A stretch of 45,730 nt of DNA from Bacteroidales bacterium UBA4347 (GCA_002394185.1 DGTB01000085.1:1-45730), one strand, 5' to 3'; positions 5,149 to 45,552 are shown, counted from the stretch's first letter. Notes: generated by a model from the letters alone, not told the origin. Translations and numbers: made by a program.

Positions 5149-6309
5149 TCAATCGGCCTCGTAGATGAGGAGCTGACCGTCGCTCCAGAGGAAGAGCAGG
5201 GGGTCTTTGTCGTGCTTCTTGCTGATCCAGCATCCGCCGCTCTCGGCATCGATGACGAGGTTGCAGTATTTGCGGTGGATCTTCTGCTCGGCAATGAGGT
5301 GGTCTTCCTTGTCGTAGACCTGCAGGTAGGTATCACCGCCGTCGCGGACGATGGCATACATGATGTCGCCGCTGATGCCGTAGGTAATCATATCGACATT
5401 GTAGGTATCCTGGACGTACTGGCGCACCACGACGACATCGGTGACATGGTAGTCATACCAGTAGCTGTTGCAGTAGAGCCAGAAGCCGGGCCAGTACCAA
5501 GGACGGGGAATCAGGGGTTCCCAGAAGATGGGGTGGCAGTGGACCACATAGCCGTGCCAGGGGTGATAGAAGTAGGGAGCGGGATGGATGGGACGGCTGC
5601 TGGGAGGCAGGGGGCCGGGATGGCCGGGGCGGGCATAGCCAGCGCTACGAGCACTGGGATTTCCACTGGGGCGCACATTGCCTGCAGGAGCGCCGCCGGG
5701 ACGAGCACTACCAACATGTGCACCAGAACGTGTAGCAGAAGCATCTCCACGGCCTACACCACCACGGGCGGAGGAAGGACGTCCGGAAGAAGTACGGGAA
5801 TTTGTACCTACACCACTACGTGAGCTCGAGGTTCTGTCGAAGGAACCGCGACCGGCAGGAGTGGCACCGCTACGGCTGGGGGTGGCGGAGCTACTGCGGC
5901 TTGGAGTGCCGTAAGACCCTCGCGAGGATCGGATATTGCTGCGCGTGGCCGAGCTACGACTCGGAGTCGAAGTGCTGCGACTTGGGCTGCTAAAAGAGCT
6001 TCGGCTGGAGCTACTGCTGCGACTCGGGCTGCTAAAAGAGCTTCGGCTGGAGCTACTGCTGCGACTCGGGCTACTGAAAGAGCTTCGGCTGGAACTGCTA
6101 CGACTGCTTCCGCTGAAAGAGCTGCGACTGCTCGAACCGCTGAAAGAGCTGCGACTACTTGAGCTGGGACTCGACGAGCGACTTACAGATGCTGAACTGT
6201 GGCCGCCACCACTGCGGCTACCACCGCCACCGCCTCTTTGGGCCATCGCCGGCGTGAAGCTCAGTGCTAAGCCTACCATTGCCAGTGCAATCAATTTCGT
6301 GGTTTTCAT
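5149..6309 (-). CDS. Secreted Ser/Arg/Gly-rich repeat protein with an aromatic-rich C-terminal domain
   Basis: Signal peptide MKTTKLIALAMVGLALSFTPAMAQ, then about 230 aa of S/R/G low complexity with SSRSSFS(S/G)PSRS repeats, then a W/Y/H/P-rich segment and a globular tail. Start chosen at the ATG at 6309. Confidence 0.7.
   Translation of the reverse strand: MKTTKLIALAMVGLALSFTPAMAQRGGGGGSRSGGGHSSASVSRSSSPSSSSRSSFSGSSSRSSFSGSSRSSSSRSSFSSPSRSSSSSRSSFSSPSRSSSSSRSSFSSPSRSTSTPSRSSATRSNIRSSRGSYGTPSRSSSATPSRSGATPAGRGSFDRTSSSRSGVGTNSRTSSGRPSSARGGVGRGDASATRSGAHVGSARPGGAPAGNVRPSGNPSARSAGYARPGHPGPLPPSSRPIHPAPYFYHPWHGYVVHCHPIFWEPLIPRPWYWPGFWLYCNSYWYDYHVTDVVVVRQYVQDTYNVDMITYGISGDIMYAIVRDGGDTYLQVYDKEDHLIAEQKIHRKYCNLVIDAESGGCWISKKHDKDPLLFLWSDGQLLIYEAD
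5984..6163. repeat. Tandem coding repeats: 3 x 42 bp then 2 x 27 bp
   Basis: Unit gggctgctaaaagagcttcggctggagctactgctgcgactc starts at 5984, 6026 and 6068 (third copy diverged). Unit ccgctgaaagagctgcgact... starts at 6110 and 6137. Confidence 0.85.
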
Positions 6310-6367
6310 ATTGATACTCCTTTCTTTGTTGGTTTTTTTCCTTGTTTGTTTCTGATGCAAAAATAGA

Positions 6368-8484: not shown

Positions 8485-8491
8485 TCTGATT

Positions 8492-8567
8492 GTGTTAATG
8501 TGTTAATTCGTTAATGTGTTAGTGGCTTGCGCAAGCATCACTCACGCATTTACACATTTACGCATTC
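8492..8567. repeat. Imperfect long hairpin built from GTTAATG/GTTAGTG-type words
   Basis: gtgttaatgtgttaattcgttaatgtgttagtg, then the perfect palindrome GCTTGCGCAAGC (8525..8536), then atcactcacgcatttacacatttacgcattc. Lies between the stop of 8558..8977 and the metG start. Confidence 0.75.
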
Positions 8568-9049: not shown

Positions 9050-9889
9050 TTAAATCTTCTTAATATGGTATTGGCGGAGGCCCTCGATGGGGTCGGCCAA
9101 CACCCCTTTGATTTCAAGGCCATGGTTCTTGGCGACAGGCTCAATGAGTGTTTTGATGCGCGCAGCAAACCCTCCAACAAGATAGAGCACCATGCAATGG
9201 GAAATCTTTAACAGATGATCCAACTGATAGTTATACCACTCTTCAAGACTGAAAAGAATCTCCGACGAGCAGTAGTCATCGTTAATATGTTCTACAGCAA
9301 ACCTCGCCAGCGACGCCAGGAACCGGTTGGCGTTGGGCTGATGGTAGACAGCGTCAAGAAATTCCTCCCTCGTCATTGGATAAGCATCATGGAATCTGGA
9401 AGATATATTCCTTGGCATACACCCCGAAAGGTAGTCTTGCAGCAGGCGACGACCTACATGGTTGGCCGACCCCTCATCGCCCAGAATGTATCCCGTGCTG
9501 GGCGCCTGATAGGCAATCTGGCGGCCGTCATAGTAGCAGGCGTTGCTGCCCGTGCCGAGGATGCCCACCAGGGCAGGCTGGTCGCCAGCGGTAGCACGGC
9601 AGGCGGCGAGCATGTCGGTCTCGACGTGTATATCGCTTGTTCCAAAGGCTTTAGTGAGCCATGCAGCCACCTTCCTGCGCTGGGCAGGAAGGCCGCAGCC
9701 GGCACCGTAGAAGTGAATTGAAAATTGAAAATTGAGAATTGGAAGTTGCTGGCGCACGGCGGCACAGGCGGCCATGAACTGCTCCTCGCTGGTGAAGTGG
9801 GGGTTCAAACCCTCGGTAACTATCATGTTGCCAGACTCCACCTCCATCCACGTGGTCTTGGTGCTACCGCTGTCGGCTATCAAGATCAT
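9050..9889 (-). CDS. BadF/BadG/BcrA/BcrD-type ATPase, N-acetylglucosamine kinase-like
   Basis: [12 protein letters not shown]...FYGAGC...GILGTGSN...GYILGDEGS motifs. The ATG at 9889 overlaps the pyrD stop (ATGA). The upstream R/H-rich extension in the track is rejected. Confidence 0.75.
9713..9747 (+). repeat. C-free heptamer array inside the nagK-like CDS
   Basis: gtgaatt gaaaatt gaaaatt gagaatt ggaagtt. The coding (minus) strand reads [11 protein letters not shown] just before the FYGAGC motif. Confidence 0.9.
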
Positions 9890-10794
9890 ATGATGCCAAT
9901 AATCTCGTTGATATCGTTGATTCCATGGTTCTTGCACCAAGCCTCCATGCCGTCGATAATCTTGACGGTGACGGCGGGGTCGATGAAGTTGGCGGTGCCC
10001 ACCTCGACGGCCGTGGCGCCGGCCATAAGGAACTCGATGGCGTCCTCGGCGGTGCAGATACCACCCAGGCCCACCACGGGAATCTTCACGGCATGAGCCA
10101 CTTGCCACACCATACGCACGGCCACGGGCTTTACGGCGGGGCCGCTCAGGCCGCCCGTGATGTTGGCCATGCAGGGGCGACGGCGCTCGATGTCGATGGC
10201 CATGCCCAGCAGGGTGTTGATGAGACTCACGCTGTCGGCACCCGCGCCCTCGACGGCTTTGGCTATCTCGGCGATGTTGGTGACATTGGGCGAAAGCTTT
10301 ACTATCAGCGTCTTATGGTACACCTTGCGTACTGCCTCCACCACCTCGGCCGCCATCTCCGGCTGGGTGCCGAAGCCCATGCCGCCGTGCTTGACGTTGG
10401 GACACGAGATGTTCAGTTCGATGGCGGGAATCTTCTCCAGCGCGTCGATCTGCTCGGCCACGGAGCAGTATTCCTCGATGGAGGAGCCGCTGACGTTGAC
10501 GATGATATTGGTGTCTAAATGCTTGATTCTATGATATACTTCGGAGCAGAACTTCTCCACGCCGCCGTTCTGCAGGCCAACGCTGTTGAGCATACCCGAG
10601 GGGGTCTCCACCATGCGGGGATAGGGGTTGCCCTCGCGATGGGTGCCCGTGGTGCCTTTCACCACGAAGCCTCCCAGGCGGTTGAGGTCGATGAAGTCGG
10701 CGAACTCCTCGCCGTAGCCGAAGGTGCCGCTGGCGGTCATCACCGGGTTCTTCAGCTTGAGATTGTGTATCTTGACGTTTAACATTGGTACCAT
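9886..10794 (-). CDS. pyrD: Dihydroorotate dehydrogenase, class 1B catalytic subunit
   Basis: [18 protein letters not shown]...LNISCPNV...LSPNV...GGI motifs. Overlaps the pyrK stop. Confidence 0.9.
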
Positions 10795-11680: not shown

Positions 11681-11752
11681 ATCATCTCCTACGATGGTAG
11701 GAGTTGGTAAGGAGTTGATAAGGACTTGGTAAGGGGTTGGTAAGGGGATAAT
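11681..11752 (+). repeat. Dispersed element, copy 1: 7-bp hairpin plus 11-mer tandem array
   Basis: atcatCTCCTACgatgGTAGGAGttg gtaaggagttg ataaggacttg gtaaggggttg gtaagggg. The core catctcctacRatggtaggagttgg recurs inverted at 19762..19843. Confidence 0.85.
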
Positions 11753-16767: not shown

Positions 16768-16830
16768 GAAAATCGAAAGTGGAAAGTGGATGCCTTGCCT
16801 GAACGGCCAGCACTTCCACTTTCCACTTCC
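16768..16830. repeat. Hairpin built from GAAAGTG heptamers
   Basis: Perfect 14-bp stem AAGTGGAAAGTGGA (16777..16790) / TCCACTTTCCACTT (16815..16828) with a 24-nt loop, between the ppiD-like stop and the M23 start. Confidence 0.85.
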
Positions 16831-16852
16831 CATTGTCAACTATTCTTTCTGT

Positions 16853-19676: not shown

Positions 19677-19761
19677 ATATTTCAAATTTTTTCTCATTGC
19701 AAAATTAATCAAAAAAAACAATCAAAGAAACCATTTTTTTAACTATCACATAATCAGCACT

Positions 19762-19843
19762 ATCTCCTTATCATCTCCTTACCAACTCCCACCCAACTCC
19801 TACCCAACTCCTACCATTGTAGGAGATGGTTGGTCGATGGTAA
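19762..19843 (-). repeat. Dispersed element, copy 2 (inverted relative to copy 1)
   Basis: 11-mers ccttaccaact cccacccaact cctacccaact, then the hairpin CTCCTAC catt GTAGGAG (19808..19825). Lies in the divergent cdd / Y-family polymerase spacer. Confidence 0.85.
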
Positions 19844-19933: not shown

Positions 19934-21430
19934 ATGCAGGCCAACCGCACATATATTGCCATCGACCTCAAGTCGTTCTACGCCTCGGTAGAGTGCGTGG
20001 AGCGGGGCCTCGACCCATTGACTACCAATCTGGTGGTGGCCGACGCCAGCCGAACGGAGAAAACCATCTGCCTGGCAGTAACGCCGTCGCTCAAGGCCTA
20101 TGGTATCGGCGGTCGTGCGCGGTTGTTCGAGGTAGTGCAGCGCGTGCGGCAGGTCAACGCCCAGCGGCGGCGCAATGCCCCTGGCTATCAGCTGCAGGGC
20201 GAGGCCACCGACAGTCGTGACCTGGCTGCGCACCCCGAAAAGGCCCTGGGCTATCTGGTGGCGCCGCCTCGCATGGCCTACTATATTGATTATAGCGCCC
20301 GTATCTACAGCATATACCTGAAATACATAGCCCCGGAGGACATCCATGTCTACTCGGTCGACGAGGTGTTCATGGACGTCACCAACTACCTGGGAACATA
20401 CAAGATAACGTCCCATGAACTGGCTCGTCGCATGATTGCTCATGTGCTGCGTGAAACCGGCATCACGGCTACCGCCGGCATCGGCACCAACCTCTACCTT
20501 TGCAAGGTAGCTATGGACATCGTTGCCAAGCATATACCCGCCGACAAAGACGGCGTGCGCATCGCCGAGCTGGACGAAATGAGCTACCGCCGTCTGCTGT
20601 GGAGCCACCGGCCGCTGACGGACTTCTGGCGTGTCGGTCACGGCATTGCGCACAAGCTTGAGGCATGCGGTATGCACACCATGGGCGACGTAGCCAGACA
20701 ATCTATTGATAACGAATCACTACTGTACAAACTCTTCGGTGTCAACGCCGAGCTTCTCATCGACCATGCCTGGGGTTGGGAGCCGTGCACCATGAAGGCC
20801 ATCAAAAGCTACCGTCCGCGCAGCAACTCCTTCAGTTCCGGCCAGGTGCTCTCCGAACCCTATACCTTCAAAAAAGCGCGCGTAGTAATGCGCGAAATGG
20901 CCGACGCCATGGCCCTCAAACTGGTGAGCCTCCGACTGGTGACCAACCAGATTGGCATCTACGTCAACTATGACGCAGAAAGCTTGAAACAAGGTACTTA
21001 CACCGGTGATATTGTGGACGACTACTATGGTCGCAACGTACCCAAACCAGCTCACGCCGGTGCCAACCTCCCCCACCCCACTTCCTCAGCGCGTATCCTC
21101 ACCGAGGTTGTAGTGCAACTCTTTGACCAGTGTGTCAATCCAAAGCTCCTTGTCCGTCGGCTTACCATCACTGTCAATCAAGTGATTGATGAAAACGACA
21201 GCAGTGTCACCCACCCGGTGACGCAACTCGACATGTTCACCGACTATGAACAATTGGAACGCGAGCAGAAGGCCGTGAAGTCCGCCCTCGACAAGGAGCG
21301 GCGCATGCAAGAGGCCGTGCTCAATATCAAGCGCAAGTTCAACAAGAACGCCATTTTCAAAGGCATGGACCTCGAGGAGGGGGCCACCGCCCGCGAGCGC
21401 AACAGCCAGATAGGAGGGCACAAGGCGTAG
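19934..21430 (+). CDS. Y-family DNA polymerase (UvrX/ImpB-like translesion polymerase)
   Basis: YIAIDLKSFYASVECVERGLDP...SVDEVFMDVT motifs; 498 aa. Confidence 0.8.
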   Translation: MQANRTYIAIDLKSFYASVECVERGLDPLTTNLVVADASRTEKTICLAVTPSLKAYGIGGRARLFEVVQRVRQVNAQRRRNAPGYQLQGEATDSRDLAAHPEKALGYLVAPPRMAYYIDYSARIYSIYLKYIAPEDIHVYSVDEVFMDVTNYLGTYKITSHELARRMIAHVLRETGITATAGIGTNLYLCKVAMDIVAKHIPADKDGVRIAELDEMSYRRLLWSHRPLTDFWRVGHGIAHKLEACGMHTMGDVARQSIDNESLLYKLFGVNAELLIDHAWGWEPCTMKAIKSYRPRSNSFSSGQVLSEPYTFKKARVVMREMADAMALKLVSLRLVTNQIGIYVNYDAESLKQGTYTGDIVDDYYGRNVPKPAHAGANLPHPTSSARILTEVVVQLFDQCVNPKLLVRRLTITVNQVIDENDSSVTHPVTQLDMFTDYEQLEREQKAVKSALDKERRMQEAVLNIKRKFNKNAIFKGMDLEEGATARERNSQIGGHKA

Positions 21431-21463
21431 TTAAGAGTTATGAATTAAGAGTTTAGAGTTATG
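21429..21463 (+). repeat. C-free heptamer array filling the polymerase/yolD-like spacer
   Basis: agttaag agttatg aattaag agtttag agttatg. The first unit overlaps the polymerase TAG stop and the last unit supplies the ATG at 21461. Confidence 0.9.
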
Positions 21464-23134: not shown

Positions 23135-23138
23135 CGGA

Positions 23139-23172
23139 GTAGTTAAGTAGACAGTAGTTAAGTAGTTAAGAG
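23139..23172 (+). repeat. GTAGTTAA-type tandem array upstream of aspartate kinase
   Basis: gtagttaa gtagaca gtagttaa gtagttaa gagag. One C in 34 nt. Ends 2 nt before the ATG at 23175. Confidence 0.85.
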
Positions 23173-28314: not shown

Positions 28315-29366
28315 CCTTTCGCAAGTTGTAGGAAGGCGTCGCGCACCTCGTTGTCAGACACCGTTATGTCGATGACCGCAGCGCCGGGCTCCTGCAGCAG
28401 CACACAGCGCAGCTCCCCGTCGGCGTTCTTCTTGTCCTGGTGCATCAGGGGAAGCATCTGTTCGATGTCCTTCAAATTGAAAGTGGGTAGTGGGTAGTGG
28501 GTAGTGAGTAGTTGCCCGTTAAGCCACTGGGAGTATGCATCATAGACCTCTTCGGCAAGGCCAAGTTTCTTCACCGAGAGGTACATCGCCACCCGCATGC
28601 CGATGCCTACTGCGATGCCGTGAGGCAGGTGGCGGTAGGCCTCGATGGCGTGGCCGAAGGTGTGGCCAAAATTGAGTATATGCCTGATTCCATGGTCGTA
28701 AGGGTCGTTCCTGACGATACGGTTCTTGATGCGGGCCACCTCCTTCAGTTGAGAATTGAAAACCGAAGATCGGGAATCGTCCACAAGCGTCTGATACAGA
28801 GCGGCATTTGTCACCGCCGCCGTCTTCACCATCTCCATCTGCCCGTTAACGAATTCCTCCCGCGGGAGCGTGTCCAGAAACCCTGGTTCTATGCATATTA
28901 GACTCGCCTGATGGAAGTGGCCTATGCTGTTCTTGATGCCGCCGAAATTGATGGCCGTCTTGCCGCCTATCGAGGCGTCTACCATCGCCAGCAGCGTCGT
29001 CGGCACGTTGATATGGCGGATGCCGCGCTTGAACCCCGCCGCCACATATCCGCCCAGGTCGCAGACACATCCGCCCCCGAGGTTGACGATGACGCTGCCC
29101 GTGTCGGCGCCGCTCTCCAGCAGCGTCTGCCATACCTGCGCCGCCACCTCCAGGCTCTTGCATTCCTCGCCCGCCGGCACCTCGATGAACTCGGCCTCTT
29201 CCAGCGGCCCCACGCTGGTCACCAGCATCGCAAGACATTGCTGGAACGTATTCTCGTCCAGCAGGATAAAGTATCTGGCATCGCGCCACTCCTCCTTGCC
29301 CAGCTCGTCACCGAGCGCCCGGAGGCCACCATAGAGTATTTTCCCATATCTTTCCATATCAGACAT
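28311..29366 (-). CDS. aroB: 3-dehydroquinate synthase
   Basis: GGGCVCDLGGYVAAGFKRGIRHINVPTTLLAMVDASIGGKT...NFGHTFGHAIE. Start at 29366 (MSDMERYG); 29357 is also possible. The longer tracked ORF is rejected. Confidence 0.85.
   Translation of the reverse strand: MSDMERYGKILYGGLRALGDELGKEEWRDARYFILLDENTFQQCLAMLVTSVGPLEEAEFIEVPAGEECKSLEVAAQVWQTLLESGADTGSVIVNLGGGCVCDLGGYVAAGFKRGIRHINVPTTLLAMVDASIGGKTAINFGGIKNSIGHFHQASLICIEPGFLDTLPREEFVNGQMEMVKTAAVTNAALYQTLVDDSRSSVFNSQLKEVARIKNRIVRNDPYDHGIRHILNFGHTFGHAIEAYRHLPHGIAVGIGMRVAMYLSVKKLGLAEEVYDAYSQWLNGQLLTTHYPLPTFNLKDIEQMLPLMHQDKKNADGELRCVLLQEPGAAVIDITVSDNEVRDAFLQLAKG
28479..28513 (+). repeat. C-free heptamer array inside aroB
   Basis: gaaagtg ggtagtg ggtagtg ggtagtg agtagtt. 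The coding (minus) strand reads QLLTTHYPLPTFN. Confidence 0.9.
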
Positions 29367-31275: not shown

Positions 31276-32070
31276 CTATTCCCCCGTCAGCCCGCCGTAG
31301 CTCTTCGCGGCGGCCAGCAGGGCCTCCTCGGTGGTGTAGCGCTCGTAGTAGGTACAACGCGTGACGACACGCTGGTGCGAAGCCACCCCCTTCTCCACCC
31401 TCACCAGCCCGAAACCCAGCATCGGGTCGCCATAGCGGTCACCCACAAGGGCCAGCGTCCCGTGCACGTCCTTGTAGGGCGACGTAAGCGTCGACGGCAC
31501 CCTGACGAAATCCTCGGCCGTCAGCGGCTCCACCTTGATGCTCAGCTGGAACATCTCGGTGCCGTTCTGAAACACATACACCTGCTGCCTCAACACATAG
31601 AGCAGCAGCGTCATCCTGCCGGCCCTTGCCCTCGTCAGATCGGTGAGCAGCGCCGCCTGTCCGTCCACCTCCCCAAGCTGGTAGCTTATCGGCGCCAGTG
31701 GCCCGTCGCTGACCACCATCTCGGGCAGCAGCAGGGTGCTGCCGTAGTGGTGGCCCTTCTCCAGATACGGCACCGGCGAACAGGTATTGACCGACATAAA
31801 ACGATAGTACGGGGCCTTGTCGCCGTCGAAGTACACCCGTCCCGTCGCCCTCAGCGCACGCCAGAGGGCGTTGTTGTGACTCTGCCGCTCGCGCAGCAGC
31901 AACTGCTTGCGCGACAGCCGGCGCGGCTGGTGTATCTGCGTCTGACGCACATACGACTTCCCATCACGCTTGTAGACCGTGAGGCCACCCACGTGCCCCT
32001 CCACATTCTCCAACAATCCTGTTGCTCGTGCCATATCCTGTTGATTTATTGTGTTGTTGCGTTGTTTCAT
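31276..32070 (-). CDS. Hypothetical protein
   Basis: About 264 aa from the ATG at 32070 (alternative 32034). No motif I can assign. Confidence 0.55.
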   Translation of the reverse strand: MKQRNNTINQQDMARATGLLENVEGHVGGLTVYKRDGKSYVRQTQIHQPRRLSRKQLLLRERQSHNNALWRALRATGRVYFDGDKAPYYRFMSVNTCSPVPYLEKGHHYGSTLLLPEMVVSDGPLAPISYQLGEVDGQAALLTDLTRARAGRMTLLLYVLRQQVYVFQNGTEMFQLSIKVEPLTAEDFVRVPSTLTSPYKDVHGTLALVGDRYGDPMLGFGLVRVEKGVASHQRVVTRCTYYERYTTEEALLAAAKSYGGLTGE

Positions 32071-32176
32071 CACCCTCTCCCCGCGCCACCGCAGCCCTCG
32101 ACCCTTGCCGCCAACCCGATTCCGGCATACAAGTAGTACCCAACTCCGTGACAACGAGCAGATAACTCCCTTTGGG

Positions 32177-32209
32177 TTTCGGTTGAGTTTCGGTTCGGTT
32201 TCGGTCTCC
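32177..32209. repeat. 3 x 11-nt tandem repeat TTTCGGTnnnn
   Basis: tttcggttgag tttcggttcgg tttcggtctcc. Confidence 0.85.
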
Positions 32210-34594: not shown

Positions 34595-35908
34595 ATGAGA
34601 CATCTAAACAAACTTGCCCTCGCCGCCTGCCTCCTCTTGTCCTATGGCATCGCGCTGGGACAGACCGGGCAGGGACTGCCAAGTCCGGCATTCCATTGGA
34701 AGTGCCCGTCCGCCGATTCGGCGCTGAACTTCCATCCGGCGACCACCGCCCCACTCCTTTTCGACAGCATCCCCTATGCCGAAGACTACACCGTTGTGGT
34801 GGTCTATAAGCCCGTCGTGGACACCGAAGCCACTGTGTGGCAGCTCGTCTTCGCCGACAGCATTGGTCGTGGGCTGACCACCGAGCGTATCCTCTCCGAC
34901 AGCACAGCCATCCGCTTTGCTGAACATACCGACCGCAAACCGGTGATCCATACCTTGCGCCAGTCCGCCCCCGACTCCTCTTCTGCCTACGCCAGCCTGT
35001 CTGTCGGCGACGGAAACATCAAGGTCTCCGAGGTGCTGTACTTCAATCACCGTCTTGGCAACGCCGTCCTACGCAGGGTGCAGTCCATCCTGGCCATCCG
35101 TTATGGCATCACCCTCGGCCCTGTCGACTATATTGGAGTCAATGGCCACCGTGTATGGCAACATCGGCTCGACAGTGCCGTGTTCCACCACCGCATCACG
35201 GGTATTGGCAGCGACACCTCCCTCCATCAATTGTGCAGCCGCTCCGAAATGGACGGCTCCGTCGTCACCCTCTCTGCCGACAGCCTCCCGCAAGGGGCTT
35301 ACCTTCTCATTGGCGACAATGATGCACCTCTGACATTCCTGCAGGAGGCCTCTGACATTGAAACGCTCGCCCGCCAATGGCGCGTTCAGAGTTCAGGTAC
35401 AGAGGATGTCGCGTTTTCTCTTGCATTTGATACGCGGAGTATTCCCGTTCCCACCGACAGCCTTGTGCTGTTACTCGATGGTGGCATCATCCTCCCATCG
35501 GTTGTGACTGCCAACGAAGTACGTTTCAATAATCTATGGCTCTCGTCCGACACCTGTACCTTTACCCTCGCTCGCGGTGCCTTCTTGTGGCAGCTGGCGC
35601 AATCCGGCTCCAAGGGCGCCAAAGGTCACAGTGGCAAAGAGTATGACGAACATGAGAAAGTTTCAATTTTCAATTCTCAATTTTCACTTTATCCGAATCC
35701 CACCACTGGCCATTTCAACATCGAGGTGTCCGGTGCCCGTCAGGTACAGGTAACGATATATAACCTACAGGGTAAAGTAATCGCCACCTACGGCGACAAT
35801 AACCGTGACCACTATTGCTTCGAAGGTTCCCTGCCAACAGGCAATACCTACTTCGCCACCATCGCCACCGAGAGTGGCAGTCAGACCATAAAACTCATCG
35901 TAAAGTAA
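34595..35908 (+). CDS. Secreted protein with a T9SS C-terminal sorting domain
   Basis: Signal peptide. C-terminus LYPNPTTGHFNIEV...VTIYNLQGKVI...YFATIATESGSQTIKLIVK is a typical Por/T9SS CTD. The passenger domain is unassigned. Confidence 0.8.
   Translation: MRHLNKLALAACLLLSYGIALGQTGQGLPSPAFHWKCPSADSALNFHPATTAPLLFDSIPYAEDYTVVVVYKPVVDTEATVWQLVFADSIGRGLTTERILSDSTAIRFAEHTDRKPVIHTLRQSAPDSSSAYASLSVGDGNIKVSEVLYFNHRLGNAVLRRVQSILAIRYGITLGPVDYIGVNGHRVWQHRLDSAVFHHRITGIGSDTSLHQLCSRSEMDGSVVTLSADSLPQGAYLLIGDNDAPLTFLQEASDIETLARQWRVQSSGTEDVAFSLAFDTRSIPVPTDSLVLLLDGGIILPSVVTANEVRFNNLWLSSDTCTFTLARGAFLWQLAQSGSKGAKGHSGKEYDEHEKVSIFNSQFSLYPNPTTGHFNIEVSGARQVQVTIYNLQGKVIATYGDNNRDHYCFEGSLPTGNTYFATIATESGSQTIKLIVK
35658..35692 (-). 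repeat. Heptamer array in the passenger-CTD linker of the T9SS protein
   Basis: Coding strand aagtttc aattttc aattctc aattttc actttat encodes KVSIFNSQFSL. The reverse complement is gaaaatt/gagaatt, the same words as at 9713..9747. Confidence 0.9.
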
Positions 35909-37361: not shown

Positions 37362-39868
37362 AAGAAACCAACCCCTTGGGAGAAATTTTTTACAGCTACA
37401 CATACTACAGACCCAAGAAGAAACGTTATTCCTACATGACAGGCAACGACGTGACCTACGAATACGGCACCAGCGGCAACGACATCGGCCGCCCCGTCCG
37501 CATCACCGACGGCAGCGGCAGCTACGAATGCCACTATGACAAACTCGGCAATGTCACTGACGAGACACGCACCATCGCCCTGCCACAGCACGGCGAGGTG
37601 TACCAGTTCAGAATGCTTTACCAGTATGACAGCTGGGGTCGTATGCTCTCGATGACCTACCCCGACGGCGAGGAGATAACCTACACCTATCAGTGGGGCG
37701 GTGACCTCCTCTCCATGCACGGCAACAAAAACGGCAACGACCGCACCTACATCAGGGAGATACAATACAACTCTTTCGGACAGAAAGAAAACGTGAACTA
37801 TGGTAATGGCACCAGTGCTCACTATACTTACGACGCGCTGCATCGCCTCGTCAATCTCCAAAGCACTGATAGCCTAGGCAACTTAATGCAAAACATTGAC
37901 TATACTTTTGACAATGCAAGCAATGTTACGGGCATTGTCAACAATGCCGGTGTTGTGAACATGCTTGGAGGTGTATACGAAAATACCTATAAATACGATG
38001 CGCTGCACAGACTTGAAGAGTCGTATGGTGGAGGTGCCATAGGAAACTACAACACCTATCTTAATTATTCACCATCGGGCAGACTGATAGGGAAATTCCG
38101 CGACAACAACTCAGTCACACTGTCGGCCTCAGTCGATATGGCCTACGGCTACTGCAACGACTATCAGCCTCACGCCGTGAAGCGTATGTTCGACTACAAG
38201 AACGGAATGCTTTACGACATGCGCTGGGATGAAGCAGGCAACCTCGGTCAGGTGAGCATGGCCAGGCCGGGCGAAATGTTTGAGGCAGGACGTTTCCTCT
38301 TCTGGACCGAGGACAACCGTATGCACGCTGCCGTGGACGACAAACACTATAGCTACTATGCATACGATTACGGCGGGGAGCGCCGGTTGAAACTGGTGGG
38401 AGTCAACAGCTCAGTGGATGTCAATGCCGAATACATGACTGCTATCTCTACATTGAACGAGCCGACGCTCTATCCCTCTGCCTACATGGTGCTGACCAAC
38501 AAGGGCTACACCAAGCACTACTATGCCGGTACCGAGCGCGTGGCCGCACGTCTCGGCGGTGGCGGACTGGATGCCCTGTATCCTGTTATCGGTAACGAAG
38601 AAGAACTCCAGAAAAAAGCTGATATATTGTTTAAACAAAGCATCGAACAGGTGAACAGCCGTGTGCTTCATGAAAATGATCTCGACTGCATAATGAACAA
38701 TGAATTCACTAAGGAGGAGTTTGGCCACCCAATTGAAGGCATCCCCTACCAGATGAAGGCAGACGTTAAGTGTGACCACAGCCAGCTCAATGAAATGGTC
38801 AACTCAATGTTGACCGATTATCATAACGGAAAGGAGGATGAAGTGTACTTCTACCATTCCGACCACCTCGGCAGTGCCAGTTGGATAACTGACTTCGGCG
38901 GTGAGGCGGTACAGCATATCCAGTACCTGCCCTACGGCGAGCCGTATGTTAATCAGCATCCCGCCGGATACCAGGAACGTTTCACGTTCACCGGGAAAGA
39001 GAAGGACGAGGAAACCGGCTACGGCTATTTCGGTGCCAGGTACATGGACCACGAGCTGATGACCATGTGGCTCAGCGTCGACCCGATGGCCGACAAGTAC
39101 CCGAGTATTTCGCCGTATGCTTATTGTGCCTGGAACCCAGTGAAGCTGGTGGATCCGGATGGATGTGAAGTGGGAGACTATTATGATAGAAATGGGCGAT
39201 GGTTAGGTACGGACGGAAAAACTGACCACGTAGCATATGTTGCAAAATCAGTGACAAAAAATTCAAAAGGACTTGTAGTATCCGCTGATGGTGTACAAAA
39301 GTTGTCCATCACAAACGAAGAGCTACTTGACAGGGCAACATGGGTATGTGGGGAAAGTGGAGGAAGCGGGGAATACATTTCCGATAGAACTCAGAATGCT
39401 GGCGATGCAGCGTCCGTCGCAGATGCTCGTGTGGTGGATTATTATGCTTATGCAATTAATAATGCATCGACGACTGATGGCGGATTCTATAAAGCTGCTA
39501 AAAACAGGATGGGGAAAATAATAAATGGGGTTTATACCAAAACATATGATGGGTATTTCGAAGGACGGGGGTTGGGGGGCAACACAAATAGTAAGGCGTT
39601 CTCTAACGCCCGAAATTCCGATATGAGGGAAATCAATCAAAACTGCTGTTTTACCAACTCCATTTCTGCTGTTATCAAATCTGTGACAGATTCGAACGAC
39701 CCAACAGGTGGTTGTCGTGCGTGGCTCGGCGGTGACGATGCAAATACGTATGTAAGGAACGGCTCGGTGTCTGTCAAGCGAGAAGGTAGAATTACGACAA
39801 ATCAATTTAGCTTCAATTCCAATAACGGAAGAAGCCACCATAGTTTTTACATATTATCAGTAAAATGA
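37202..39868 (+). CDS. Rhs/YD-repeat protein with RHS core and a variable C-terminal toxin tail
   Basis: Many YD repeats (YDYDNLGRL, YTYDALHRL, YKYDALHRL). Core YFYHSDHLGSASWITD...LPYGEPY...FTGKEKDEETGYGYFGARYMD...DPMADKY...NPVKLVDPDG ends at 39163, followed by an AT-rich 234-aa tail. Confidence 0.9.
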   Translation: MGTLGTSGSGQSDGWTDDDSTTYDYDNLGRLVRRIHPDAGTTTFTYDPAGNLMKETNPLGEIFYSYTYYRPKKKRYSYMTGNDVTYEYGTSGNDIGRPVRITDGSGSYECHYDKLGNVTDETRTIALPQHGEVYQFRMLYQYDSWGRMLSMTYPDGEEITYTYQWGGDLLSMHGNKNGNDRTYIREIQYNSFGQKENVNYGNGTSAHYTYDALHRLVNLQSTDSLGNLMQNIDYTFDNASNVTGIVNNAGVVNMLGGVYENTYKYDALHRLEESYGGGAIGNYNTYLNYSPSGRLIGKFRDNNSVTLSASVDMAYGYCNDYQPHAVKRMFDYKNGMLYDMRWDEAGNLGQVSMARPGEMFEAGRFLFWTEDNRMHAAVDDKHYSYYAYDYGGERRLKLVGVNSSVDVNAEYMTAISTLNEPTLYPSAYMVLTNKGYTKHYYAGTERVAARLGGGGLDALYPVIGNEEELQKKADILFKQSIEQVNSRVLHENDLDCIMNNEFTKEEFGHPIEGIPYQMKADVKCDHSQLNEMVNSMLTDYHNGKEDEVYFYHSDHLGSASWITDFGGEAVQHIQYLPYGEPYVNQHPAGYQERFTFTGKEKDEETGYGYFGARYMDHELMTMWLSVDPMADKYPSISPYAYCAWNPVKLVDPDGCEVGDYYDRNGRWLGTDGKTDHVAYVAKSVTKNSKGLVVSADGVQKLSITNEELLDRATWVCGESGGSGEYISDRTQNAGDAASVADARVVDYYAYAINNASTTDGGFYKAAKNRMGKIINGVYTKTYDGYFEGRGLGGNTNSKAFSNARNSDMREINQNCCFTNSISAVIKSVTDSNDPTGGCRAWLGGDDANTYVRNGSVSVKREGRITTNQFSFNSNNGRSHHSFYILSVK
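38987..39163 (+). repeat. Rhs core-end homology block, copy A (177 nt)
   Basis: Encodes FTGKEKDEETGYGYFGARYMDHELMTMWLSVDPMADKYPSISPYAYCAWNPVKLVDPDG. Recurs at 40587 and 41965. Confidence 0.9.
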
Positions 39869-39881
39869 AATATCCCGCAAA

Positions 39882-40445
39882 ATGAAATACCTTGCAGTAT
39901 TACTAGTTCTTATGTTATTTACACAAGAATCTATTTCACAGACTCGTCTAAAAGATTTACCTTTCTCTAAAGAACTAAAAATTGTTCATGATGATAGTGT
40001 GAGTCGCACGATTTGTATTGATGACAAATCCAATACCTATTGGGTGGATTCCATTTATCCTTTGTTCTATGAATATGAATACCCTGAAAAGGGGGTAATT
40101 ACCCAGCGTAGTTTTTTGGTGTCTGGAACTAATAAATATCTGCTTGACTCTTTAATAATTAAAAACTATAATGACTATTGCCTTTCTTTGGATATAGCTA
40201 GGGTTAATATATTTAAACAAAAGGGGTCAGAATACTTGTTTATTGAGTGCTATAATATATTTCAATATGGAAGTGACTCCCAGCCTATATTTATATTATT
40301 AACAAAAGAAGGAAACAATTTTGCACATCCATCAGTCTATTTAATGGACATCTACTCTGAAAATGCATATGAGAATATCTATATTCTATATGAAAACGAC
40401 AAAATCGTAATGAAAGGAGAAGGTGTATCATTAATCTCGTTCTAA
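39882..40445 (+). CDS. Putative immunity protein for the resident Rhs tail (exported)
   Basis: 187 aa, AT-rich, signal peptide MKYLAVLLVLMLFTQESISQ, 14 nt downstream of the Rhs stop. Assigned by position. Confidence 0.6.
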   Translation: MKYLAVLLVLMLFTQESISQTRLKDLPFSKELKIVHDDSVSRTICIDDKSNTYWVDSIYPLFYEYEYPEKGVITQRSFLVSGTNKYLLDSLIIKNYNDYCLSLDIARVNIFKQKGSEYLFIECYNIFQYGSDSQPIFILLTKEGNNFAHPSVYLMDIYSENAYENIYILYENDKIVMKGEGVSLISF

Positions 40446-40565
40446 TAATGGCAACAACCAAAATGGCAAACAATTGTCTTTGCATAGGGTATTCTAACTA
40501 TCAGAATATTATAAACAATGCTCCATTCGGCACAAAAAACCAACACAAAAAACTGCACGCAAACC

Positions 40566-41369
40566 ATGCGGTTTCAACCTCCATCTTTCACCGGGAAAGA
40601 ACGCGACGAGGAAACGGGCTACGGCTACTTCGGAGCCCGCTATATGGACCATGAGCTGATGACGATGTGGCTCTCCGTCGACCCGATGGCCGACAAATAT
40701 CCCTCTATTAGTCCCTATGCCTATTGTGCATGGAATCCTGTCAAGCTGGTTGATCCGGATGGAAGAGATTGGGTTGTAATCTTTGACCATGAGAAAAAAA
40801 CGGTTACGGTCAATGCAAAATATGTAACCAAAGGTGATGAAGCATATGCGTCGGCGGAGAAAGCTATTAAGGCATGGAATAATTTATCGGGAAAATATAG
40901 CTTGATGGTTGGAGACGAAAAATATAGCGTTAATTTCAAGTTGTCTGTAATTGATAACTCAGAAGCAGTTCTCGGCGACCCAGAACTGAACGTCTACAAA
41001 TTAGTATCCGAACTAAGAAACAAAGACGGAGAGGTTGATGAAAATATTATGGGAGAAACAAACCGCAGAATAATAAACGTTCTTGAGTCAGAGAAAGACA
41101 ACTATGTAACTTCGTCACATGAAATAGGCCATAGTTTAGGTCTAGAGCATTTCATAAATGGGACGAAAGGTCTAATGGAAGAAGATGGTGGAAGATTAAG
41201 TTGCTGTCATGAAATAACCAAGTCCAATGTAGATAATATCTTGCATCTTGCTTTGCATCCTGAAGATCGCAATCCAAAAACCAAAAGTGGCGTAGGGTCA
41301 TATAAGGTAATTGGGAGCAGCAAAGTGGATATAAAAAATCGGTTTAATTTAAGATTACTCAAAAACTAA
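40566..41369 (+). CDS. Orphan Rhs C-terminal cassette with a metzincin-like zinc-protease tail
   Basis: Starts MRFQPPSFTGKERDEETG... with the core end to DPDG (40763). The tail contains HEIGHSLGLEH (HExxHxxGxxH). An earlier ATG at 40518 is possible. Confidence 0.75.
   Translation: MRFQPPSFTGKERDEETGYGYFGARYMDHELMTMWLSVDPMADKYPSISPYAYCAWNPVKLVDPDGRDWVVIFDHEKKTVTVNAKYVTKGDEAYASAEKAIKAWNNLSGKYSLMVGDEKYSVNFKLSVIDNSEAVLGDPELNVYKLVSELRNKDGEVDENIMGETNRRIINVLESEKDNYVTSSHEIGHSLGLEHFINGTKGLMEEDGGRLSCCHEITKSNVDNILHLALHPEDRNPKTKSGVGSYKVIGSSKVDIKNRFNLRLLKN
40587..40763 (+). repeat. Rhs core-end homology block, copy B
   Basis: By hand count, 30 mismatches in 177 nt versus copy A, nearly all synonymous (one K-to-R change). 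Confidence 0.9.
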
Positions 41370-41375
41370 AAAGTC

Positions 41376-41855
41376 ATGAAAACACATCTATGGTTAGTAA
41401 TTTTGCTAGTTTTTTTCTCATCCTGTGGGGTTAGCAAAACTTCCTCTAACATTGTTGATTATGATCGTCTTTTGTTTTCAAATGGAGAATACTCAACAGT
41501 TTTGGGTACATACATTTTGCATGACACAATTACTACTGACACAATGGAAAACGAACATTGTATACTTCTTGGTAATATTTTTGCAAGAAATCCATTACAG
41601 GAAATATATGGTGCGGAAAAATCCGAGAAATTCAGTCTATTTGATAATTGTTTAGAGTGGCCACACTTATTCATTCCTTCCCTAAACTTAGACATACAAA
41701 TGGTAGATGGTTCTTATCGTGTGGATATTCCTAGCGGATTATATGATGTTATTATTTTTGCCAGAGATTATGATCCAATTCACATTAGATGGAACTTTAT
41801 CAGTCACCATATTTATTCGATTGACTTTTATTTGGGCTGCACAGTCATTCACTGA
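41376..41855 (+). CDS. Putative immunity lipoprotein for the metzincin-like tail
   Basis: 159 aa, lipobox VFFSSC, 6 nt after the orphan stop. Confidence 0.6.
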   Translation: MKTHLWLVILLVFFSSCGVSKTSSNIVDYDRLLFSNGEYSTVLGTYILHDTITTDTMENEHCILLGNIFARNPLQEIYGAEKSEKFSLFDNCLEWPHLFIPSLNLDIQMVDGSYRVDIPSGLYDVIIFARDYDPIHIRWNFISHHIYSIDFYLGCTVIH

Positions 41856-41943
41856 TTATAACCTCTCCTAACAGAGAATACAAAGTTCACAAATAGTTGA
41901 ACACAGGAACTCATAAAATAGAATGGGTAAATCGATTAAAACC

Positions 41944-42204
41944 ATGCGTTTTCATCCCTTCGTTTTCACCGGCAAAGAGAAGGATGAGGAAACGGGCTAC
42001 GGCTACTTCGGAGCCCGCTATATGGACCACGAGCTGACGACCATGTGGTTGAGCGTTGACCCGATGGCAGACAAGTACCCATCTATTAGTCCCTATGCGT
42101 ATTGTGCGTGGAATCCTGTGAAGTTGGTTGACCCGGATGGACGTAAAATACATTTATATAATGATCTAACTGTAGAAAAAGTAAAAAAATACATGAGAGA
42201 ATAG
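41944..42204 (+). pseudogene. Vestigial orphan Rhs cassette (core end plus a 20-aa tail)
   Basis: MRFHPFVFTGKEKDEETG...DPDG, then only RKIHLYNDLTVEKVKKYMRE and a stop. Multiple stops follow in all frames. Confidence 0.7.
41965..42141 (+). repeat. Rhs core-end homology block, copy C
   Basis: By hand count, 23 mismatches in 177 nt versus copy B, with one M-to-T change. Confidence 0.9.
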
Positions 42205-42299
42205 AAACCTGCTAGGCAATGTGACTAGAGAAAGTGCGGGTATAGAAAAAGTGAAATATCAAAATATTGCTCAACGAATATTAAATAGAACAGAAAGAA

Positions 42300-42783
42300 A
42301 TGGAAACGACCACCAATATTAAAGCGCTTTTGATAATCTGCATGCTATTTGCAAGTGGATATGGTCATGGGCAAAACAGCGTTTCATTCGAATAATTGGG
42401 ATTTTGTATTTAAAAAAGGAGACTCGTATTGTTATAAAATGATAGACTATACAAAGAACTCTGACTCCAACGTTGATTCAATTAGAGTTTTATATTATTT
42501 TGATGGAGACAGTGTTGTGAGAGTAGACAATTATCAGTCTCGCACAACTTATTTGTACCACAATACAGCGAACTCCCAGTATGGTAATAATTGTACGATA
42601 ATTGAATGGAAAGATGGAGAATGTAATTATAAATTTAGTCTAGGGCATGAGAGAATAGAAAAGAGAATGATCTTTGCATTTATCGGAATGCATCCTACTG
42701 ACAATATGAAAGTTGAAGATGACTACAACAATTGCATTAAATCTTGTGTACAACACAAGGAGATGATAATATTCCATCAATAG
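42300..42783 (+). pseudogene. Frameshifted putative immunity gene of the vestigial cassette
   Basis: The ATG at 42300 encodes a signal peptide (METTTNIKALLIICMLFASGYGHGQ) that hits TAA at 42393. The body (…NNWDFVFKKGDSYCY… to 42783) is open in another frame from 42349. Confidence 0.55.
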
Positions 42784-42970
42784 ACAAAGAAAAAAGAGAC
42801 AAAAAAACGCATTAAACTGGGGCGGAGAACTGGCACCAGTCACAACGGAAAAGAATAGATAAAACAAGGCTATTCCGTTATTGTTTAAAAATACAAAGGC
42901 GAACAGCGACTGACGAAACCAAAAATCGCAATACACTGCAATTTTATTTTGCCATTATCAAAAAAAAATG

Positions 42971-42978
42971 TATTTTTG
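42971..42978 (+). promoter_or_regulatory. -7 box TAttTTTG for the hipBST-like operon
   Basis: TATTTTTG lies 28 nt upstream of the ATG at 43006. Confidence 0.5.
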
Positions 42979-43005
42979 CATCGAAAATCGCAACATGTTG
43001 AGACT

Positions 43006-43227
43006 ATGGATCTGAAAGAAATTGGACAGGCTATCAAGTCACGACGGGCATCGCTCGGTGTGAACCAACGCACGGTGGCGGAACTCTCTGGAGTCGCCGT
43101 AAACACACTTGTCGCCATCGAACGTGGCGAAGGTAACCCACAAATAACCACCCTGATGGATATTCTCAACACCATCGGTCTCCAGGTTGAGGTGAAACCC
43201 AAAATAATGGAGTATGAGACAATGTAA
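43006..43227 (+). CDS. hipB: XRE-family HTH protein, HipB-like
   Basis: MDLKEIGQAIKSRRASLGVNQRTVAELSGVAVNTLVAIERGEGNP is a classic Cro/C1 HTH. Overlaps the next gene by 14 nt. Confidence 0.8.
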   Translation: MDLKEIGQAIKSRRASLGVNQRTVAELSGVAVNTLVAIERGEGNPQITTLMDILNTIGLQVEVKPKIMEYETM

Positions 43228-43525
43228 GGTGTATGTGAATGACTTGGAAGCCGGTTTGTTGACAGAAGAAGACAGCGGACGGTATAATTTCTCCTATTCA
43301 GTCGGTTATACCGGTAAAGCCGTCTGTCTGTCCATGCCAGTGAGGAACGAGGCATACACCTCGGACCATCTGTTTCCATTTTTTTTCAACATGCTCTCAG
43401 AGGGCGCGAACCGCAAGATACAGTCGCAGCTGTTACATATCGACGAAAATGACGACTTCGGCATCCTGCTGGCCACCGCTCAAACAGACACCATCGGAAC
43501 GGTAACAATCAAACCAGTGCAATGA
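43214..43525 (+). CDS. hipS: HipA N-terminal subdomain as a stand-alone protein, HipS-like
   Basis: 103 aa. VYVNDLEAGLL...LSMPV...FPFFFNMLSEG...DTIGTVTIKP parallels the HipA N-terminal domain (VG.L...LSLSLP...FF.NLLP...D.VGA.T). Confidence 0.75.
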   Translation: MRQCKVYVNDLEAGLLTEEDSGRYNFSYSVGYTGKAVCLSMPVRNEAYTSDHLFPFFFNMLSEGANRKIQSQLLHIDENDDFGILLATAQTDTIGTVTIKPVQ

Positions 43526-44924: not shown

Positions 44925-45509
44925 TCAGCCTGCATTCACCACGGCGGCGATGGCGGTGACGATAAGGATCAGGGCCGAAGCCACCATCCAGCGGCGGGGG
45001 CGTAGCTTGACATGCTGGCGGCCGTACATGATGCCGAGATAGGAGAGCAGGAATACCGCCACCAGCATGGGCCACAGGGCGCCGTGCAGATGAGCGGCCA
45101 ACGAAGCCACGAAACCGGCTCCCAGGCCCAGCAAAAAGCCGTTGATGCCCGCGGCCACGGTGAAGAGCAGCACCCGCAGCGTGCCGGCATTGAGGTCGAA
45201 GGAGGCGGGCTTGGTCTTGCGGCCCATATAAGGCCACAGCATCTTGGCGGCCACGAAGAGGGACATTCCCAGGAAGATAAAGGCATTGGGGCGTGCAAAA
45301 GCCTCGGGGTCGCCGGGCAACTCGAAACGGAGCATATTGCCCAGCGAGATGCCCACACAGAACAGGGCCGCCTGGACAACGGCCATAGTGAGCGAGATGA
45401 GGAGTCCCGACGACAGCGGCACAGGGGCGGCGTCGGCACAACGTTGCATCAGCAGCATGAAGCTGATTCCAAAGGCAATGGCGATTACGATGAAGGATAC
45501 TATGGACAT
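44925..45509 (-). CDS. mntP: Manganese efflux pump MntP family
   Basis: 194 aa, six hydrophobic segments and two-fold internal symmetry typical of MntP/DUF204. Confidence 0.75.
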   Translation of the reverse strand: MSIVSFIVIAIAFGISFMLLMQRCADAAPVPLSSGLLISLTMAVVQAALFCVGISLGNMLRFELPGDPEAFARPNAFIFLGMSLFVAAKMLWPYMGRKTKPASFDLNAGTLRVLLFTVAAGINGFLLGLGAGFVASLAAHLHGALWPMLVAVFLLSYLGIMYGRQHVKLRPRRWMVASALILIVTAIAAVVNAG

Positions 45510-45517
45510 TTTTGGAA

Positions 45518-45552
45518 GGGTTATGGGTTATGGGTTATAGGTTATAGGTTAA
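45518..45552 (+). repeat. C-free heptamer array GGGTTAT x3 plus AGGTTAT plus AGGTTAA
   Basis: Direct reading. Begins 9 nt upstream of the mntP start and uses the same word as 596..630, but in the opposite orientation relative to the adjacent gene. Confidence 0.9.

Follow-up and report, generated by a model that had tools for sequence, protein, structure and literature searches.

Tandem repeats whose unit is not a multiple of three nucleotides are usually taken, when they lie in bacterial genes, as phase-variation switches or as damage. The question of what else such a repeat may represent is raised by a sugar kinase gene in a 45,730-nt stretch of DNA from Bacteroidales bacterium UBA4347 (GCA_002394185.1 DGTB01000085.1:1-45730), the whole of which is referred to here as the window. 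In this gene, a tandem array of heptanucleotides is translated in frame just before the FYGAGC glycine motif of the enzyme. Such a segment could be shaped by the function of the protein, by a signal in the nucleic acid, by a switch, by a mobile repeat, or by the copying of the DNA itself. On balance, it appears somewhat more probable than otherwise that slips in DNA copying, and not protein function, shape this segment of the kinase.

A heptanucleotide array in the kinase coding sequence

On the plus strand the array reads GTGAATT GAAAATT GAAAATT GAGAATT GGAAGTT, and its units on the sense strand are AACTTCC AATTCTC AATTTTC AATTTTC AATTCAC. The 35 nt contain 15 A, 11 T, 9 G, and no C. A first-pass annotation, made from the sequence alone, had described a C-free heptamer array lying in frame on the minus strand immediately before FYGAGC, and both the sequence and the translation agree with this description. 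The extent requires a correction, however, since the C-free run goes beyond the array (Table 1); by length, it shares fourth place in the window. The peptide encoded by the array starts at Q48, continues for eleven residues to position 59, and is followed by FYGAGC. It includes FSILNSQFSI; more precisely than had been stated, H and the F of FYGAGC stand between FSI and YGAGC. TGA is present on the plus strand of the 35-mer at offsets 1, 6, 13, and 20, i.e., in all three frames, and therefore only the minus strand can code, as the same annotation had argued.

Table 1. Positions and readings of the kinase gene, its array, and comparable arrays (CDS, coding sequence)
Feature	Location	Strand	Remarks
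Host CDS, BadF/BadG-type ASKHA sugar kinase, MurK/K1058 group, 279 amino acids	9050..9889	-	Similarity to solved members
Heptanucleotide tandem array, 5 units	9713..9747	-	In frame within the kinase CDS, residues 48-59
C-free run, 42 nt (plus strand)	9707..9748	.	mRNA without G
Coding array, sense (ACTACCC)n, 4.4 copies	28474..28514	-	Read QLLTTHYPLPT; C-terminal domain of 3-dehydroquinate synthase (aroB)
Coding array, TTTCAAT TTTCAAT TCTCAAT TTTCACT	35661..35694	+	Read VSIFNSQFSLY; directly before the LYPNP start of a type IX secretion C-terminal sorting domain
Array at the kinase site	L163		TTCACAA x4, perfect; protein 86% identical
Array at the kinase site	L162		TTCAAAA x4, perfect
Array at the kinase site	L084, L085		TTCTCAA x3-4
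Array at the kinase site	L083		TTTTCAA
Array at the kinase site	L082		TTTCCAC / TTTCCTC
Array at the kinase site	L086		TTTCACC
Array at the kinase site	L014		TTTTCAC
Array at the kinase site	L002		TTTCAAC / TTTCCGC
Array at the kinase site	L007		YYTTCAA
Bacteroides in-frame arrays or inverted array pairs	L055:6532-6620, L055:7346-7379		
Bacteroides in-frame arrays or inverted array pairs	L136:1254-1323, L136:1854-1917		
Bacteroides in-frame arrays or inverted array pairs	L114:6514-6546		
Bacteroides in-frame arrays or inverted array pairs	L118:6491-6524		
Bacteroides in-frame arrays or inverted array pairs	L134:6473-6504		

Tandem Repeats Finder (TRF) reports positions 9716-9741 with a period of 7, 3.7 copies, and 94% matches. 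The array thus consists of head-to-tail copies of one unit within the range of 5-11 nt, in three or more copies and beyond chance, as do simple sequence repeats (SSRs). In 100 shuffles of the whole window that preserved dinucleotides, TRF, at an unchanged threshold, found no tandem array of any period, as against six of period 7, two of period 8, and three of period 11 in the real window. Within the gene, the best 35-nt window has identity at a lag of 7 nt in 22 of 28 positions. None of 5000 codon shuffles of the gene reached this score (mean 13.1, maximum 18). These shuffles rule out an artefact of chance or of codon composition.

The AlphaFold2 model of the kinase (mean predicted local distance difference test score 94; predicted template modelling score 0.90) shows helix 1 spanning residues 35-48 and strand 4 spanning residues 57-62, with a loop (49-56) between them. 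On this model, the array encodes the loop between helix 1 and strand 4, together with the first residues of the strand leading to the glycine motif. The choice between loop and core, which the first-pass annotation had left to a predicted structure, is thus in favor of a loop and the start of a strand.

The site in the orthologues

DNA of orthologues was collected by a metagenome scan, which gave at least about 12 close relatives, and further orthologue DNA was added protein by protein. Arrays are present at the orthologous site in 16 DNA loci. In 14 of these, the window included, the array comprises four units and a partial unit, the units being different (Table 1), and the start and end codons of the array are the same across the four-unit loci listed. 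Copy number varies among relatives in frame-preserving steps: L161 has about seven units (+3), which adds seven amino acids in frame, and L016 has 6.4 copies. L015 and L016 come from distant environmental Bacteroidota (38% identity) and carry (ATCTCAC)n at the same site, with 6.4 copies as the upper value; their array may be either ancient or independent.

These lengths bear on the possibility that the array is a phase-variation (contingency) switch, in which gain or loss of one 7-nt unit would shift the frame and turn the kinase reversibly off. The layout is the classic one for contingency loci, with a unit that is not a multiple of three placed early in the CDS (codons 48-59), and homogenized arrays imply that register shifts do occur. 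Nevertheless, the array is in frame in all 16 array-bearing loci, none being frameshifted, and the sole change in length by whole units is the addition of three. Four units are also few for efficient switching. Moreover, the host is a cytoplasmic enzyme of housekeeping type in a pyrK-pyrD-x-DUF5606-metG cluster, and not of the surface, restriction-modification, or virulence class, and a similar array is found in aroB, where on/off switching makes little sense. No indel in the kinase gene was seen among the assembled Logan contigs of four metagenomes, although this is a weak test, because assemblies hide rare variants. A switch is therefore considered quite improbable.

The units of an array resemble each other more than they resemble those of other arrays. 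Identity between units averages 0.85 within an array; when units of different orthologues are compared, it is 0.62 for equal unit positions and 0.61 for unequal ones. With 85% likeness inside arrays and 62% across orthologues, the sequences indicate that the array evolves in concert, i.e., by homogenization of its units. L082 and L002 display ABAB patterns of units, which suggests register shifts of 14 nt (two units).

At the protein level, variability within the kinase family is greatest at this site. When relatives that are at least 92% identical are compared in pairs, residues 47-59 differ by 33% in amino-acid sequence, as against 5% in the remainder, and this is the most divergent 13-residue window of the protein; the variability that the first-pass annotation had mentioned for the homologues is thus borne out. 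The cluster at 90% identity that holds the window protein has at least eight full-length members with the array among those listed. The peptides at the site include FSILNSQFSI, FKIQNSKFKI, FTIHNSQFTI, FPLPTSHFPL, FSLLTSRFSL, and HYPLPTTHYPL, every one of them matching exactly what a different perfect heptamer array encodes when read through its three frames. When the peptides of the best 120 orthologues (60-96% identity) were decoded in this manner, a perfect heptamer fitted at 9 or more of 11 residues in 72 of the 120 and at all 11 in 14, and 15 distinct units were inferred. With 11-residue windows taken at random from the same proteins, a fit at 9 or more is obtained in 0.6% of trials.

It is hardly credible, in view of these peptides, that the segment results from chance or from selection at the protein level for FSILNSQFSI. 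Its last residues (SIH) do lie in the conserved strand 4, where the family favors a hydrophobic-x-hydrophobic pattern. This would not account for the periodicity, which the codon shuffles never reproduced, or for the succession of different perfect heptamers that give different peptides at one site. Array-less orthologues, found in Bacteroides and in more distant organisms, have unrelated peptides, while similar peptides come with the repeat; the segment is therefore not an ordinary conserved sequence of the kind that had been named as the alternative. In L005, L089, and L090, a related peptide (FAIPNSHLSI) is retained over degenerate DNA, and these loci read as decayed arrays.

The loop of the array-less orthologues has the same length as that of the array-bearing ones. 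Therefore the array is not an insertion, a status which the first-pass annotation had thought open to alignment, and the insertion hypothesis is ruled out.

Replacement of the array by a palindrome in close strains

A comparison of strains had been proposed as a check on the segment, and close strains do differ. Three proteins of the same 90% cluster (P0125, P0131, and P0133; 298 amino acids; several independent contigs) have a different segment of 36 residues in place of residues 43-59. In the DNA of this allele (L164:3120-3240), a perfect palindrome is placed in frame between Cys42 and the FYGAGC motif, with a stem of 36 bp, a folding energy of -93.7 kcal/mol, and z = -11. The protein segments that flank it are 92-100% identical to those of the window, and the flanking coding DNA is closely similar. 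The left arm encodes KQVWASPLPLS, and the nearly identical KQVLASPLPLS is a plain short loop, without a palindrome, in L165/P0097. The core motif of the palindrome was found nowhere else among the 165 loci and the window, and a dispersed element was rejected for this reason. Since the left arm corresponds to local loop sequence and the motif does not recur, the sequences indicate that an inverted duplication at the site itself, and not an import, gave rise to the palindrome. At one and the same codon address, an unpaired, G-free island is thus tolerated in some strains and an extremely stable hairpin in others.

The same observations bear on the idea that a mobile or selfish short repeat, of a type that enters genes as do the Rickettsia palindromic elements, left a copy here, and that the array is not a product of local slippage. 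Dispersed families do exist, such as the 11-nt arrays with a terminal hairpin at 11695-11745 and 19758-19818, the array of which is also present in L003. In addition, near-identical inverted-array elements occupy two sites of one Bacteroides oxidase gene, and the unit TTYTCAA is common to two genes of the window. However, comparison with orthologues that lack the array shows no insertion at the kinase segment, neither conserved flanks nor target duplications accompany it, and other copies have unrelated flanks. The unit changes between orthologues are single-base steps spread within the array, and the palindromic allele is built from local sequence. A mobile origin is considered improbable.

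Arrays elsewhere in the window and in Bacteroidota

Besides the kinase array, the window holds five further arrays of period 7, and arrays of 8 and 11 nt. Two of the five are coding (Table 1). At the aroB site, orthologues have other heptamer-coded peptides, such as QLSTFNFQLST, QLSTINCQLST, QLVSINSHLLS, and RLSHFTFHLSP, and some are five residues shorter. The second coding array belongs to the same unit family as the kinase array and lies in a protein of 437 amino acids (34595-35908). The codon adaptation of array windows is among the lowest (ranks 9th of 268, 4th of 349, and 10th of 426), and none is the minimum. A rare-codon pause site was rejected, because the array windows are not minima and their low adaptation is plain AT-richness.

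In 1.96 Mb of Bacteroidota loci, tandem arrays of at least three copies number 93 for period 7, 31 for period 8, 19 for period 11, 16 for period 9, and 1 for period 6. In many Bacteroidota, arrays fill operon spacers and adjoin start codons on the upstream side. In Bacteroides species, two proteins have arrays whose sites are fixed and whose units (CAATTCT, CAATTGT, and AACTCTC) are specific to the species. By eye, one host was labelled a beta-lactamase-family/SGNH hydrolase-like protein of 646 amino acids and the other an FAD/Fe-S oxidase-like protein of about 1000 amino acids. The gene of the latter also contains in-frame inverted array pairs; it is the oxidase gene mentioned above. In each of the four rumen metagenomes, a handful of other contigs carry near-identical (AATTGAA)n with unrelated flanks, up to eight of them sharing one variant, and these recurring contigs raise the local word depth 20-40-fold.

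A rival reading is that the array is a selected cis-acting element, which the coding loops would merely accommodate. It would serve as a platform with 7-nt spacing for proteins binding to RNA or DNA in single-stranded form (cold-shock, S1-type, or RNA-recognition-motif proteins, with about one heptamer to each domain), or as an unstructured G-free island in the mRNA. Several observations are in accord with this: the site is retained even as the unit changes, the core (xTxYCAA / TTYYCAM) being conserved and the sense strand free of G; the same units are present in other genes and genomes, including the metagenome contigs with unrelated flanks; and arrays in many Bacteroidota either occupy operon spacers or abut start codons on the upstream side. 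Structure prediction leaves the array unpaired in the transcript, and folding of its 141-nt context gives z = -0.85. For the TAACTGA repeats of other bacteria, binding of S1, Csp, or Csr has been proposed, and one CspB per heptamer is cited (PMC4679880).

Against such an element, close strains carry the extremely stable hairpin precisely where the unstructured array sits, and many orthologues have a decayed array or none. Intergenic arrays occur in both orientations relative to transcription, and units differ widely even within one genome. The lack of G in the coding arrays is accounted for by the avoidance of stop codons. A search of the entire window at Rfam gathering thresholds gave no known RNA family. 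Taken together, a selected cis-element appears unlikely, though it deserves some weight.

A broader possibility is that Bacteroidota maintain heptamer arrays at fixed addresses (spacers, 5' leaders, and protein loops) by means of a dedicated homogenizing process or of a protein that binds single-stranded nucleic acid in a 7-nt register. If so, the coding arrays of the sugar kinase, of aroB, and of the Bacteroides genes would be functional cis-elements or the footprint of a new homogenizing mechanism, and not neutral microsatellites. This is regarded as unlikely.

A model for the kinase array

The explanation that we favor, with somewhat better than even confidence, is that the kinase array is a self-homogenizing heptanucleotide microsatellite in coding sequence, tolerated in a permissive loop. 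It is one of a large population of arrays of 7 nt (fewer of 8, 9, and 11 nt) that are spread across Bacteroidota in spacers and in permissive protein loops, and it has stayed in place while a clade of rumen Bacteroidales radiated, evolving in concert. Out-of-register pairing by 7 or 14 nt would copy changes from unit to unit, either by slipped-strand mispairing or by transient misalignment followed by realignment and repair. We infer this misalignment mechanism, as we do the neutrality of the array for the enzyme and any reason for the 7-nt unit. The array itself, its place in the protein, its persistence under changing units, the statistics of concerted evolution, the allele with three added units, the palindromic allele formed on local sequence, and the wide occurrence of such behavior are shown by the data. 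Selection on the reading frame and on the length of the loop would spare only conversion between units without change of length, or the rare change of three units (21 nt, seven amino acids). The same tendency to template switching would also have yielded the inverted duplication that became the in-frame palindrome of close strains; that this allele originated in place shows that the stretch does undergo template switching.

Coding arrays are limited to the stop-free orientation and to units that give tolerable residues in three frames, and these limits would explain why the units are G-free and T/C-rich and why they recur. Most likely, the array contributes nothing specific to the enzyme, and any stop-free heptamer would be tolerated, because of its position in a loop, the diversity of the peptides, the series of decayed arrays, and the tolerance of the palindrome.

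Several points weigh against the microsatellite model. Slippage and conversion of units are deduced from assembled contigs, which hide rare variants. Slippage is expected to be infrequent at four or five units, and slips of a single unit break the frame. Homogenization is surprisingly efficient, with perfect arrays of four units in lineages that are only about 14% diverged in protein. The units are non-random: they lack G, are rich in T and C, and conserve CA(A/C), and unrelated genes and genomes share them. Selection could thus be acting on the sequence itself, beyond the filters of stop codons and amino acids. Finally, the persistence of the site down to 60% identity and the separate (ATCTCAC)n of L015 and L016 exceed what simple neutral birth and death predicts.

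Under the model, a process at the level of DNA dictates about 12 residues of a conserved enzyme, and the locus offers a natural system in which mutagenesis by misalignment and template switching may be measured under a frame constraint. It also calls for caution in annotation, alignment, and scans for selection, where such loops mimic hypervariable or positively selected regions. It further provides a handle on why heptamers dominate bacterial tandem repeats, and cultivable Bacteroides have similar coding arrays.

Relation to known repeats

No report of heptamer arrays in Bacteroides was found in the searchable literature, which gave only general accounts and accounts from other phyla. Heptanucleotide repeats of Cyanobacteria go under the name of STRR. 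According to what is relayed of Mrazek, Guo, and Shah (2007) in PMC4679880 and PMC4692102, heptanucleotide repeats are over-represented in bacteria, and polymerase slippage has been proposed as the cause. The long SSRs of these surveys, as the same two papers present them, resemble the kinase array in that they are head-to-tail 7-nt units in few copies, 7 nt being the commonest length, and vary between close relatives. The surveys, so far as they are relayed there, stress intergenic sites and, within genes, repeats with units that are multiples of a triplet. In contrast, the kinase array, like that of aroB, is non-triplet yet read in frame in a housekeeping enzyme; it keeps to four units and to a single orthologous site, where the unit changes in concert.

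The TAACTGA repeats of Beggiatoaceae, Cyanobacteria, and some Bacteroidetes are close in form: they have two to six heptamers, with stops in all forward frames and a translatable reverse strand (LSVISYQ), and they occur in few copies inside open reading frames (ORFs), others lying just upstream of start codons, as do several arrays here (PMC4679880). They differ in having one specific unit, a suspected horizontal origin, and a proposed role in translation, whereas many units are found here at one orthologous site. The GGGAATC and GGGGA(T/C)T repeats of Xanthomonas and Nostoc are also genome-wide heptamer families; some form inverted pairs able to fold into stem-loops, and their length and sequence vary greatly between related strains at the same intergenic position (PMC4692102). 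Those repeats are, however, G-rich, prone to form quadruplexes, and intergenic (PMC4692102), while the kinase array is coding and its sense strand is free of G. In the window, only two arrays are of the G-run type (596-624 and 45518-45551; unit GGGTTAT).

Contingency loci, for example those of Haemophilus influenzae (PMC2651432), likewise have a non-triplet tandem repeat near the 5' end of the CDS. Unlike in those loci, the arrays here show no frame-shifting variation of copy number, have four or five copies, and lie in housekeeping hosts. At most, the kinase array might be a latent phase switch.

Rickettsia palindromic elements were reportedly described by Ogata et al. in 2000 as inserted in frame in protein-coding genes. 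The likeness is that repetitive sequence is tolerated in frame in surface loops of conserved proteins, and the L164 allele does have a long in-frame palindrome at the present site. The element of the window differs in being a direct array, not an insertion, and not part of a dispersed family of 100-150 bp, and the L164 palindrome was made from the local sequence.

The kinase array thus belongs to the known kind of heptanucleotide SSRs and is not a new system. Four of its aspects appear to be previously undescribed: that housekeeping enzymes stably translate a non-triplet array in frame; its persistence at a single codon address in orthologues while the unit is rewritten in concert; the length held at four units with an exception of three added units; and the replacement, at the level of strains, by a palindrome formed in place and in frame.

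The kinase gene

The CDS is the ATG-started portion of an ORF at 9050-10108, and its ATG overlaps the stop codon of the upstream pyrD-like gene as ATGA. The gene order pyrK-pyrD-[kinase]-DUF5606-metG is kept in relatives. The closest genome match is a metagenome-assembled genome of an uncultured rumen Bacteroidetes/Bacteroidales organism, with 90% protein identity, and the 23 runs found to contain the sequence are mostly bovine gut metagenomes.

Full-length matches (residues 1-276) to solved proteins were obtained with 1zxo (Q8A1P1 of B. thetaiotaomicron; E = 7.5e-49), 8oqw and 8ow9 (MurK of Tannerella forsythia; about 1e-47), 8oqk and 8ow7 (K1058; about 1e-44), and 1zbs (PG1100 of P. gingivalis; 2e-43). 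The score for Pfam PF01869 (BadF/BadG) is 28.9 bits, below the cut-off of 31.5, and that for the NCBIfam equivalog NagK_SO3507 is 33 bits, far from the cut-off of 370. By sequence similarity, the host is accordingly assigned to the MurK/K1058 type of BadF/BadG ASKHA sugar kinases; its substrate may be GlcNAc, MurNAc, or another sugar. The label 'nagK-like' in the first-pass annotation is fair as regards a sugar kinase, but approximate, since the nearest proteins are those of the MurK, K1058, PG1100, and Q8A1P1 group. The differences in the sugar site between MurK and K1058, as far as they are laid out in the accessible portion of PMC10465942, concern residues 69 and 132-134, which are outside the array segment.

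Three relatives (P0073, P0082, and P0097) are mosaics, with 81-93% identity to the window protein in residues 1-118 and only 51-52% in residues 119-279; in ordinary kinase orthologues, divergence is even along the protein. Because the identity drops after residue 118, unlike in the evenly diverged orthologues, recombination within the gene near the ILGTGSNAC motif is suggested for these three.

A 9-bp inverted repeat (CCTTCCTGC ... GCAGGAAGG) is located in the kinase CDS at 9672-9694. On the sense strand it lies downstream of the array at a distance of 18 nt, and in L001 it is not conserved. In relatives, the spacer that follows the kinase gene also has arrays, with other units and periods.

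Other repeats and features of the window

The two G-run arrays, at 596-624 and 45518-45551, consist of the heptamer CCATAAC (the reverse complement of a rotation of GGGTTAT) in 4.1 and 4.9 copies. They are intergenic, in opposite orientation, and near the ends of the window, and the second is about 10 nt upstream of the start codon of a minus-strand gene (44925-45509). Their G-run strand could form a quadruplex.

The 11-nt arrays at 11695-11745, 19758-19818, and L003:15720-15757 have a common unit, TGGTAAGGAGT (sense ACTCCTTACCA), one strand of which contains TAAGGAG. The two in the window end in a small hairpin, CTCCTACCAT(C/T)GTAGGAG, and lie about 115-140 nt upstream of gene starts (pyrK and dinB-like). 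Together, the three constitute a dispersed array-plus-hairpin family.

A hairpin with arms made of heptamer repeats (GAAAGTG GAAAGTG ... CACTTCC ACTTTCC) is found at 16775-16832, between an M23 peptidase gene and a SurA-like gene, and similar inverted array pairs are present in many Bacteroidota loci, e.g., L056:13571-13667. Other intergenic arrays of 7, 8, and 11 nt are at 21429-21461, 23138-23170, 8491-8521, and 32172-32205, that is, in the dinB-like/dus, smpB/amino-acid kinase gene, and DUF5606/metG spacers and upstream of the gene at 31276-32154, respectively.

Longer tandem repeats, of 42 nt (2.9 copies, 96%) and of 24 nt, are at 5973-6160 in an ORF of 403 amino acids (5149-6360, minus strand), which has no Pfam match and an unusual base composition by codon position. 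Lastly, a low-GC stretch extends from about 39860 to 43400. The GC content at the third codon position of its ORFs is 0.29-0.43, as against 0.7-0.9 in the surrounding genes, and the stretch was probably acquired horizontally.

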